Translations under genes and position numbers: made by a program
Notes under the pieces: model-generated
Database searches by the model: none
What the model was told of the DNA's origin: nothing
The model's input: the letters and a program-made list of their open reading frames with translations, nothing else
NCBI GenBank assembly: GCA_963781885.1
Contig: CAWAHW010000006.1
Coordinates: forward strand, 320,001-384,000
DNA length: 64,000 bases
Reading direction: 5' to 3'
DNA from: an uncultured Spirochaetota bacterium
GTDB taxonomy: Bacteria > Spirochaetota > Spirochaetia > SZUA-6 > Fen-1364
Shown here: piece by piece, positions 61,418 to 64,000 of the stretch
How the letters are laid out: the number at the start of each line of letters is the position of its first letter
Numbering within the stretch: the stretch's first letter is position 1

Positions 61418-62122
61418 CTATCCATAAATGTAGTCGGGGGGGATGCCGAAGGTCGGATCCTTTGCCTTCTCCAATATCACTTCCGTGATCGACTGCTTCA
61501 GGGTCCGCTTGTGGTCGAAGAAATCGCTCCTGATGCGCCCGGCCTGCGCGGCGAGGTTGCGCTTGTCCAGGTTCGTTTCATGCGGCATGTCGAGGTCCGC
61601 GAAGCAGCCCAGGACGTCGAGGATGGCGCGGTTCAGCGGCCAGTCCTGATCCTGCGTCTCATCGAGGAATTTTCCGAGGCTGTTGACCTCTTCGATGGTC
61701 GCGGGGTAGAGCTGGTAGCCTTCCTCCGCCGACGTGTATACCTTGAACAGGAACCCGAGGAACACGCGGAGCGATTTTTCGTAGATCTCGTTGCTCTTGA
61801 ACTCGGCGAACGTCTCGAATGTCGACTTCACGATGAACGGGTTGGGCGCGACGCAGTCGAAATAGCGCTCCGGTTGATGGCCCGTCAGCAGCACGTCGAT
61901 GGCGTAGCGGTTGTTGCTCGCGAGCATGTTGATGTAAAGCGGGTAGTTGTCCGGGTTGATGCCCATCTTGTTGAGAAAGCTTGCGTACGCCCAGAGGGCG
62001 TTGGCCGCGCGCGGGGTGGCGCTTTCCAGTATCTCCGTGATGTAGCGGTGCTTCAGGAAGTCCACGTACTCCTCTGAGACGTGGCCGACTTTTATCTCGT
62101 CCTTCAGCTTCTGAAAATCCAT
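61418..62122 (-). CDS. Hypothetical protein, paralog 1 of the tandem family (most divergent complete copy)
   Basis: FLNKMGINPDNYPLY, GYQLY, VNSLGKFL, LNRAILDVL and IRSDFFD align with the neighbouring genes. Confidence 0.85.
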   Translation of the reverse strand: MDFQKLKDEIKVGHVSEEYVDFLKHRYITEILESATPRAANALWAYASFLNKMGINPDNYPLYINMLASNNRYAIDVLLTGHQPERYFDCVAPNPFIVKSTFETFAEFKSNEIYEKSLRVFLGFLFKVYTSAEEGYQLYPATIEEVNSLGKFLDETQDQDWPLNRAILDVLGCFADLDMPHETNLDKRNLAAQAGRIRSDFFDHKRTLKQSITEVILEKAKDPTFGIPPDYIYG

Positions 62123-62175
62123 GGATGGGCCCCCGCCTCAATGGGGGCGCGGCGCGGGCCGCGCCCCCTGCCATA

Positions 62176-63024
62176 CTAGTTCGACGACCTCTTGCGCGGC
62201 GTGCCGCCTTCCGAGGCCTTCTTTGCCGCCGGTGCCGGCGCTGCCGCTTCCTTCGACCCCTGGCCGCGCGAGGAGACGCGGATGTTGATCTGCTCCTTGG
62301 CGACCTTGTCTTCCTGCGCGAGCTTCGACTTCGTGAACTCCACCACCTTGCGGGGGGCCACCTCGAAGTCCTTGTAGCTCATGCGCGCCAGGAGAACGGG
62401 CGGGATGACCTCATTGAGGTGCTTCGTGCTGTCGAAGAAGAAGTTGCGGATCTCATTGGAGTGGATGGCGACCTCTTCCATGTCGCGGTTCGTCTCATCC
62501 AGGCCTTCCAGCTGCGCCACCTTTTCCAGGATGTCGAGGATGCAGCGGTTGAGGGAGTCTTCCTGTCCCGCTTCCTCGTCGAGGTGCTTGCCCAGCGCGT
62601 TGAGGTCCGACACGGTCACGCTGTAGATCTTGTACCCGTCGATGGGCACGTTGTACGCGGCCTGGAGGATGCCGAGCACGACGGAGAGCGACTTCGCGTA
62701 CAGGCCCCCCGGATGCCTTTCGGCGAGCAGGTTGAACGATGCCGTCAGAAGCTGGTAGTTGGGCTGGATGGAGCTGAAGAAGAGGAACGGATCCCGCGCG
62801 CCGATGAGGGCGTCGATGACCCAGTGGTTCCCGATCTCAAGGACCTTGATGAACAGGGGATAATTCTCCCCCGTGAGCCCCGTCTTGTTCAGGAAGTGCG
62901 CGTAGGTGATGGCGGATTCCACGGCTTCCGGCGTCCGGCAGGCCAGTATCCCGCTCAGCATCTTGTTTTCGATCACGGCGATGTCAGTCGCGGTGTATGT
63001 CTTGGTTCTATCGAGAATGACCAT
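62176..63024 (-). CDS. Hypothetical protein, paralog 2, with a basic low-complexity C-terminal tail
   Basis: [69 protein letters not shown]. Confidence 0.88.
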   Translation of the reverse strand: MVILDRTKTYTATDIAVIENKMLSGILACRTPEAVESAITYAHFLNKTGLTGENYPLFIKVLEIGNHWVIDALIGARDPFLFFSSIQPNYQLLTASFNLLAERHPGGLYAKSLSVVLGILQAAYNVPIDGYKIYSVTVSDLNALGKHLDEEAGQEDSLNRCILDILEKVAQLEGLDETNRDMEEVAIHSNEIRNFFFDSTKHLNEVIPPVLLARMSYKDFEVAPRKVVEFTKSKLAQEDKVAKEQINIRVSSRGQGSKEAAAPAPAAKKASEGGTPRKRSSN

Positions 63025-63046
63025 ATTTCCTCCTCCTCGCCTGCGC

Positions 63047-63739
63047 TCAATCTTCGAAGACGCTGGCCGGCAGAACCTCTTTCACGAGGTAGTCGGACTT
63101 CACGAGCAGGACCTGGGGAATCGCGTCCTCCATCTTCCTGCGCTTGTCGAAGTAGTTGCCGCGGATGACGTTGCACTGCCGCGCGATCAGCTCCATCTCG
63201 TCGTCGCCCTGCCCCTCGAGGGAGGCGAGCCTGTCGAGGATGTCGAGGATGGCGCGGTTCACCGACTCGTCCTGGCCCTTTTCCTTGTTCAGATGCTTGC
63301 CGAGATTGTTCACGTCGTTGATGGCGACCTTGTGGATCTTGTAGCCGTCCTTGGCGTAGCTGTACGCCGACTGCAGCGCGCCCAGCACGATCGCGAGCGT
63401 CTTGGGATAGATGCCGCCGGGATGCCAGTTGGTGAGCAGCCGGAAACAGGTGGAGACGAGGTGCTTCGTCGGCTGGATGGGCGTGAGGAAAAGGAACGGA
63501 TCCGTGGTGCCCAGCAGGGAGTCGATGACGAAGTGGTTGTCCATCTCCAGGAGCTTGAGGAACAAGGGGTAATTCTCATTCGTCAGGCCGCTCTTGCGCA
63601 GGAACGCGGAATACGTGATGGCTGCTTCCACCGCGTCCGTTGTCCTGCAGGCAAAGATGTTGTTGATGATGTGGTTTTCCACCCGGAAGATCGACTGGTC
63701 TGACCACACCTCCTTGTTGAACTCGTCCAGCTGCGCCAT
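63047..63739 (-). CDS. Hypothetical protein, paralog 3
   Basis: FLRKSGLTNENYPLF, DPFLF, HPGGIY, DGYKIH, VNNLGKHL, VNRAILDIL, IRGNYFD; GGAGG RBS. Confidence 0.88.
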   Translation of the reverse strand: MAQLDEFNKEVWSDQSIFRVENHIINNIFACRTTDAVEAAITYSAFLRKSGLTNENYPLFLKLLEMDNHFVIDSLLGTTDPFLFLTPIQPTKHLVSTCFRLLTNWHPGGIYPKTLAIVLGALQSAYSYAKDGYKIHKVAINDVNNLGKHLNKEKGQDESVNRAILDILDRLASLEGQGDDEMELIARQCNVIRGNYFDKRRKMEDAIPQVLLVKSDYLVKEVLPASVFED

Positions 63740-63749
63740 GATTCGCCTC

Positions 63750-64000
63750 CTATCTGGCCTTTTTCGTGCTGTCTGCGAACTTCCGCGTGCTCCGCGGCTT
63801 CACGAGCGTTTCACTGTAATTCTTCCGCACCAGGATCTCCGGCGGCATCACGCTGTTCATCGCCCGTCTCTTGTCGAAGAAGGCGTTGCGCACCGATGTC
63901 GCGTGGGAGGAGTTCTTGTCCACCACCGGGTCCTCGTTGTTGATCGAGCGGTATTCCGCGATGTCCGCGAGGATGTCGAGGATGAACCTGTTCAGGGGAT
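63750..64000 (-). CDS. Hypothetical protein, paralog 4 (3' end only; continues beyond the window)
   Basis: Not in the ORF track. Manual translation gives PLNRFILDILADIAEYRSINNEDPVVDKNSSHATSVRNAFFDKRRAMNSVMPPEILVRKNYSETLVKPRSTRKFADSTKKAR*, which has the same NRxILDIL and RNxFFD motifs. Confidence 0.8.
   Translation of the reverse strand, partial: PLNRFILDILADIAEYRSINNEDPVVDKNSSHATSVRNAFFDKRRAMNSVMPPEILVRKNYSETLVKPRSTRKFADSTKKAR

Follow-up and report, generated by a model that had tools for sequence, protein, structure and literature searches.

We analysed a 64,000-nucleotide stretch of DNA from an uncultured Spirochaetota bacterium (the window; C6:320001-384000 of genome G000, where C6 numbering is contig numbering), and found that a tandem array of five related minus-strand genes runs across its end. 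We named the paralogs A-B-C-D-E in transcription order. Complete in the window are paralog E (61,418-62,122, 234 amino acids (aa), a faster-evolving subunit), paralog D (62,176-63,024, 282 aa, a core subunit with a low-complexity tail of ~58 aa) and paralog C (63,047-63,739, 230 aa), the most conserved subunit, which is modelled as an armadillo-like helical solenoid. A and most of B lie beyond window position 64,000. An earlier inspection of the window from its letters alone (the sequence-only reading) had proposed at least four soluble tandem paralogs without a transmembrane segment, the fourth with the last two of the shared motifs, and possible further copies past the end of the window. The array is real: the 3' part of B occupies 63,750-64,000, and extending the contig completes B (238 aa in full, start at C6:384,466) and adds A (C6:384,551-385,558, outside the window), which has a Lys/Arg/Ala/Pro-rich tail. 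Every shared motif named in that reading was found in register in our alignment, and the GGAGG ribosome-binding sites that it had placed at two paralogs are GGAGG-type sites ahead of C and D.

Pairwise tblastn comparisons of the paralogs gave E-values of 1e-27 to 1e-70 at 32-50% identity, indicating relatedness far beyond chance, and identity to C in the alignment was 30-50%. A profile search of the genome found exactly 5 copies of the family. The top 19-residue hydropathy of the five proteins was 0.7-1.36, well under the 2.0-3.3 of 22 of the 25 LysM anchor proteins compared; the paralogs therefore look soluble, as had been proposed.

A sigma-70-like site, TTGACA-17-TAGAAT (C6:384,543-384,515, minus strand), precedes B. 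Sites scoring at least 10/12 stand ahead of 10/25 B genes (shuffles 3) and 20/51 group-II C genes (shuffles 6), and ahead of at most 2 genes in any internal gene class. This enrichment suggests housekeeping-type transcription of the array. The codon bias of B-E was above average (79th-99th percentile), although a background of 3,105 crude gene calls makes this measure too coarse to rely on. Three short hairpins lie just 3' of the E stop codon (window 61,350-61,420, minus strand; z -3.17 versus shuffles) and may end or protect the transcript, whereas the D-E intergenic hairpin was no better than shuffles (z -1.55). Rfam gave no match.

To the other side of the array, 1-3 kb away inside the window, two plus-strand genes encode a PPP-like metallophosphoesterase (58,185-59,162; Pfam Metallophos 8.6e-14) and an atypical kinase (59,187-60,108), which its motifs and the model of a relative assign to the CtkA/PI4K-II/Fam20/HipA fold. 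A sigma-70-like site, TTGACA-17-GATAAT (58,144-58,172, plus strand), precedes both as a consensus match only. We examined the neighbourhoods of the array in the best 80 of 165 confirmed stretches, which form 78 loci and are biased towards C-like matches. The phosphatase was present in 34 of the 37 loci with full flanks, and the kinase in 31 of them.

The array itself was found in 16/401 sampled Spirochaetota genomes and in 9/88 genomes of the SAR324 phylum, with four copies each time in the latter. The kinase was found in 12/401 Spirochaetota genomes, all within the 16 array carriers; of the four carriers without it, three are assemblies in 320-530 contigs and the fourth is G007, discussed below. 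In the SAR324 phylum, the kinase occurred in the same 9/88 genomes as the array but adjoined it in only 1. That the kinase is retained even when unlinked speaks most strongly for a functional tie to the array. The sequence-only reading was right about the array and overlooked these two co-inherited enzymes; seen with them, the array becomes the core of a phosphoregulated module. We favour, with moderate confidence a little above an even balance, the reading that the paralogs together make up one hetero-oligomeric scaffold in the cytoplasm, which is switched by phosphorylation and on whose subunits the kinase and phosphatase act.

The active-site residues of both enzymes are conserved. The phosphatase metal ligands D65, H67, D98, N138, H193 and H260 and the catalytic H139 were invariant in 65/65 sequences, and the best profile matches in the PDB were BSU1 (3e-8) and PP5 (3e-5). 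The kinase had no PDB sequence match and no convincing Pfam match. A model of the intact relative from locus L034 reached a predicted local distance difference test (pLDDT) score of 91.7 and matched the folds of CtkA (Z 15.2, root-mean-square deviation (rmsd) 3.3, 213 residues aligned) and PI4KIIa (Z 15.1, rmsd 4.1), followed by Fam20 (13.4), MavQ (Z 12.4), HipA/HipT-like kinases (Z 9.9-12.1) and CotH, all at 9-14% identity. Asp155, Asn160 and Asp177 and the motifs DxDRxxxN and xID were invariant among 58 kinase sequences, and K74 was conserved in at least 90%. The kinase reading frame of our genome shifts near 59,900-59,960, where a contig of the same strain, otherwise identical, is one base shorter; this frame change is probably an assembly error.

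C, D and E gave no Pfam match, ARM/HEAT and STAS families included, and the paralogs had no match in PADLOC, PHROGs or PDB sequences. A search of 150 family members against NCBIfam returned no meaningful match (3 stray single hits), and the ESM Atlas returned for C only leads scoring below 0.9. Of 1.84 billion representative sequences, 218 proteins matched the profile at E<=0.001, a shorter subfamily of ~190 aa among them. No longer fused form was seen in 7,995 candidates with lengths of 526-2,000 aa, which is weak evidence. The view that no known family could be assigned thus agrees with our sequence and structure searches, none of which gave a confident full-length match to a characterised family. 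All 78 genome records listed with the array are metagenome assemblies, from spirochaetes or SAR324/Deltaproteobacteria/unnamed bacteria, which may explain the missing annotation. The near-identical relatives of C bear Spirochaetia labels. The module is not described in the literature searched, which covered few subscription journals and no supplements, so an unnamed family identifier could exist there. We conclude that the module is real, so far undescribed and conserved to an unusual degree.

The model of C (pLDDT 96.4, predicted template modelling score 0.90, 150-row alignment) contains helices only, with 12 helices followed by an extended C-terminal arm. Foldseek found nothing at E<=0.001 in the PDB and viral models (best E 0.089). 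A wide structural search returned mostly armadillo/HEAT proteins, the best being 3l6x (Z 8.2, rmsd 3.8, 160 residues aligned), a value that may reflect only a common helical arrangement, and a profile self-alignment showed no off-diagonal match that would mark an internal repeat. We therefore describe the modelled architecture as armadillo-like and claim no membership in the armadillo/HEAT family. Six polar residues are conserved family-wide (K148, Q156, N161, R162, R193, D198). Ser215 of C, in the non-helical arm, was invariant in 74/74 sequences and is a candidate phosphosite.

A sixth subfamily of ~190 aa, without the first helix and the C-terminal arm, was also observed (L069:18,938-19,507; L061:18,943-19,527; L130:10,185-10,754); it adjoins the LysM gene described below in some loci and stands alone in L130.

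The order of the array is fixed. At least two family open reading frames (ORFs) were found in 78/78 loci, at least three in 76/78 and at least four in 66/78, counts that include ORF fragments. All 37 loci with full flanks have at least four copies, namely 4-5 except in two with duplicated segments (7 and 8). C immediately precedes D in all 78 loci (L033-L110). In a tree of 145 rows from 32 chosen loci plus 9 library proteins, built by a quick method with the Shimodaira-Hasegawa approximate likelihood ratio test (SH-aLRT) and no bootstrap, clades followed operon position and not genome (SH-aLRT: C 99, E 99, B 96, A 99, G 99, D 80; E with its group-II counterpart 92). Two layouts were seen. One is A-B-C-D-E, as in this lineage, with B-C-D-E as its SAR324 form; the other is G plus C-D-E. 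The SAR324 copies nest with this lineage, which suggests a transfer between phyla. The claim that diverged paralogs were kept together is borne out: these are ancient, position-specific subfamilies with fixed order and copy number in two phyla, and neither singletons nor lineage-specific expansions predominate. Near-identical duplications of module segments were observed in L049:9,215-18,194, L095 and G317:C1, and reflect recent duplication or assembly artefacts.

The slow core of the array consists of C and D, which evolve at about the RpoD level and, in the same genome pairs, are conserved above LeuRS; B and E evolve faster. The identity of C exceeded that of LeuRS in 3/3 genome pairs of the SAR324 group (82/74, 80/77 and 93/78%) and that of RpoD in one spirochaete pair (95/92%). 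These rates bear on an alternative in which the solenoids, as subunits, target or regulate the phosphatase and kinase, as in PP2A-like holoenzymes, and the substrates are other cell proteins. It would account for the armadillo/HEAT-like fold of the paralogs, for the eukaryotic PPPs among the best PDB matches of the phosphatase, and for the SAR324 phosphatase remaining beside the array even where the kinase has moved; one source (PMC10214084) describes PPPs as regulated by bound subunits. However, no PP2A A or B subunit was among the fold matches listed, a promoter-like site of their own precedes the genes of the two enzymes here, which are often encoded on the opposite strand, and the core subunits are more conserved than the enzymes, which fits a structural core better than adaptors. 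We consider this alternative unlikely, and retain the phosphorylation-switched scaffold.

The patchy spread of the array and its apparent cross-phylum transfer, together with the HipA/HipT-like likeness of the kinase fold, might instead indicate an anti-phage or toxin-antitoxin system, in which the solenoids sense infection and release a toxic kinase whose action the phosphatase reverses. PADLOC gave 0 matches for 10 of the 11 proteins examined, among them the five paralogs, the phosphatase, the kinase and the LysM protein, and the remaining one, a pseudokinase, matched generic kinase models only. The family was absent from plasmid, phage-record and viral-contig searches. In addition, the array holds a stable place next to RsgA in 8 SAR324-group loci, is conserved above LeuRS, and its kinase is kept although unlinked. 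A defence role is thus improbable in our view.

The sequence-only reading had also proposed that the paralogs form a heteromer, namely a ring, filament or shell. We predicted the complex of one pair, C with D residues 1-232, from a 74-row alignment each. The C:D score was 0.86, compared with 0.00 for the best of three controls; this mark was reached by 116/157 solved complexes and 2/215 mismatched pairs, counts that are rough for these alignments. The runs agreed in at least 98% of contacts, with a partner pLDDT of at least 91. An interaction between paralogs is therefore predicted, as the heteromer proposal expects, whereas the ring, filament or shell finds no support in the sole modelled pair, which is a dimer. 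The model is a pseudo-twofold head-to-head dimer via the third helix, with both C-terminal arms within the interface and the closest contacts between C residues 39, 42, 43 and 46 and the equivalent D residues 37, 40, 41 and 44. Searches gave no similar solved complex, so recall of a known structure by the predictor is unlikely.

The tails of the subunits are variable: several lineages have a basic, Ala/Pro-rich tail on A or G, and the D of SAR324 has a strongly acidic one. In one spirochaete group (L098, L064, L102, L108), G tails carry a basic motif, R.RKRD..GRFV, and then an H1-like Lys/Ala/Pro tail; such tails possibly bind nucleic acid.

In the scaffold that we favour, each subunit would be a compact armadillo-like solenoid, and subunits would pair head-to-head by the third helix about a pseudo-twofold axis, with C:D as the core pair. 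The second pair would probably be E with B, or with G in the second lineage, and the pairs may build a larger assembly through conserved outer surfaces. Such further contacts would fit the finding that, in 8/9 subfamilies, positions beyond the dimer interface are at least as conserved as those within it, although buried core positions are part of that set. The kinase would add, and the phosphatase remove, phosphates on Ser/Thr of the subunits, and phosphorylation may switch assembly or partner binding. Possible outputs are signalling, cell shape or chromosome anchoring.

A wall anchor may be added in many spirochaetes. Just beyond A and divergent from it lies a membrane LysM gene (C6:385,613-387,287, plus strand), split over two frames at C6:386,443-387,096 in what looks like an assembly indel. 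The N-domain of its product was found in 7/401 Spirochaetota genomes, all among the 16 array carriers. Its architecture and linkage suggest that this protein could tie the assembly to the cell wall. The N-domain was rejected as a family paralog (hhalign probability 0.1%) and gave only a weak ESM Atlas lead to DUF6707 (0.90, low recognition).

Several observations weigh against this scaffold. Close cousins also pass the pair prediction, so homodimers could form as well. The predicted interface is symmetric, and most subfamilies preserve the small/aromatic pattern of its helix. One near-complete genome, G007 (94% complete), has a single paralog and no kinase match. Since the carriers are relatives of one another, the co-occurrence counts make them look more independent than they are, and the 9 SAR324 carriers may descend from one transfer. 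The LysM protein accompanies the array in only 16/37 full-flank loci and was not found in any of the 5 SAR324-group genomes searched. At the usual place of the first clamp motif, the phosphatase has an invariant His101, and the kinase fold ties a protein kinase (CtkA) with a lipid kinase (PI4K-II); together these leave room for substrates that are not proteins.

The pairing results and the single copy of G007 would suit independent homodimers with parallel roles and without a common complex. Against this stand the constancy of gene order and copy number in both phyla, the position of D directly after C in 78/78 loci, and the many interface positions that differ between C and D. We give such homodimers little credence and hold to a common scaffold.

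The two enzyme results would suit a small-molecule or lipid switch, in which the solenoid dimers bind a phosphorylated metabolite or lipid that the kinase produces and the phosphoesterase removes. PI4K-II and MavQ are among the best kinase folds, the phosphatase motif is GDxVH[DN][DE] where the usual PPP motif is GDxVDR, and the polar residues named above are conserved family-wide. R223 of the phosphatase is invariant, as are its R38 and K148, which might substitute in the clamp. CtkA, Fam20, CotH and HipA score as well, and these kinases mainly use protein substrates; the best phosphatase matches are protein phosphatases, and no biosynthetic gene is widely recurrent beside the array. A metabolite or lipid switch is accordingly quite unlikely, and phosphorylation of the scaffold subunits themselves remains our preferred reading.

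Further genes adjoin the module. A pseudokinase without the catalytic-loop Asp and the DFG motif is present in 20/37 full-flank loci; it was not found beside the array here, and neither this genome nor the SAR324 group held a clear ortholog, generic kinase domains only being found. Between the array and the kinase lies a class I/II aminotransferase gene (60,128-61,351, plus strand). Its cluster was found in 6/100 loci examined, and it is a lineage-specific passenger outside the module. In one spirochaete group, a short GGDEF membrane protein (L113:18,542-19,300) recurs beside the module, as does a small membrane protein with a C-terminal Cys-pair motif (L096:14,281-14,709), and both are candidate outputs. 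Upstream of the enzymes, window ~51,400-57,900 holds what we take to be a mevalonate-pathway cluster (type 2 IPP isomerase, mevalonate kinase-like, phosphomevalonate kinase-like and polyprenyl synthase genes), presumably with HMG-CoA reductase and decarboxylase genes, apparently broken over frames. Beyond the array in this lineage, C6:388,500-399,100 (L001:10,500-20,000) contains a sigma-54-type response regulator and a chemotaxis cluster (CheX-, CheA-, CheR-, CheB- and CheW-like, named by reading).

Variants of the enzyme genes were also observed. The phosphoesterase domain is fused to CBS domains in L046:14,744-16,144 and to cytochrome/monooxygenase-like domains in L121:10,204-12,399, the latter perhaps a rearrangement. 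A unit of ~25 bp in about three to four copies (window ~57,980-58,145) lies just upstream of the phosphatase promoter site; it attracts many unrelated contigs and is probably a dispersed repeat. Second kinase copies in a longer frame occur in the SAR324 group at L156:8,463-9,533 (G402, away from the array) and in G481:C182. A spirochaete-type flagellar sheath was rejected as a trait common to the carriers: FlaA is present in G000 but in 0/4 SAR324-group carriers, and flagellin, present in all 5 genomes, does not discriminate. These four carriers (G401, G402, G404, G478) have 6-12 flagellin-domain matches each, and three of them have 9-13 kinase-domain matches, mostly in ORFs of 1,300-2,300 aa.

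The housekeeping-level conservation of an uncharacterised family, together with an uncharacterised kinase family, points to an undescribed cellular machine that unites eukaryote-like parts: an armadillo-like scaffold, a PPP phosphatase and a kinase of the PI4K-II/Fam20 fold. Because its parts are small and soluble, both the complex and the reaction of the kinase are open to direct test in Escherichia coli. A bolder proposal, which we regard as doubtful, is a cytoskeletal or organelle-like polymer of obligate armadillo-like heterodimers with a C:D lattice core and exposed charged tails. It would be assembled and disassembled by its own eukaryote-like kinase and phosphatase, anchored to the wall by the LysM protein, perhaps tethered to DNA through H1-like tails, and transferred between spirochaetes and SAR324 as a functioning whole.

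Parts of the module resemble known systems. The model of C resembles the stacked-helix architecture of armadillo/HEAT solenoids (p120 catenin, mDia DID, CNOT9), but the paralogs have neither an internal sequence repeat nor a Pfam match, and the Z-scores lie in the range of common arrangements. The linked kinase has the fold and catalytic motifs of CtkA, PI4K-II, Fam20 and HipA, but at 9-14% identity and with no HipB/HipS-like partner seen among the recurring neighbours, which were clustered from ORFs of at least 80 aa. The phosphatase has the invariant metal ligands and catalytic His of PPP phosphatases and the PP2A holoenzyme, but differs in its GDxVH[DN][DE] motif and its weak E-values in the PDB. 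FimV/HubP are membrane LysM landmark proteins, and the LysM protein resembles them in having a LysM domain, one membrane helix, a long low-complexity linker and a folded cytoplasmic domain; here the arrangement is reversed, with LysM at the C-terminus, the N-domain has no name, and the protein is accessory to the module.

The closest likeness in logic is to the stressosome (RsbR paralogs, RsbS, RsbT, RsbX), which also combines several paralogous subunits with its own kinase and phosphatase. In two sources (PMC9237128; PMC9765535), paralogous dimers form a hub, a kinase activates it and a phosphatase resets it. The subunits here are all-helical solenoids without a sensor domain, whereas the stressosome core consists of STAS domains, and the stressosome is a megadalton cage of dimers, compared with one predicted dimer here. 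The kinase has a CtkA/PI4K-II fold, whereas RsbT is a GHKL-fold kinase, and the phosphatase is PPP-like, whereas RsbX is of the PP2C type. By this analogy, the module would work like a stressosome, but it is not one, because the subunit fold, the kinase class and the phosphatase class all differ.

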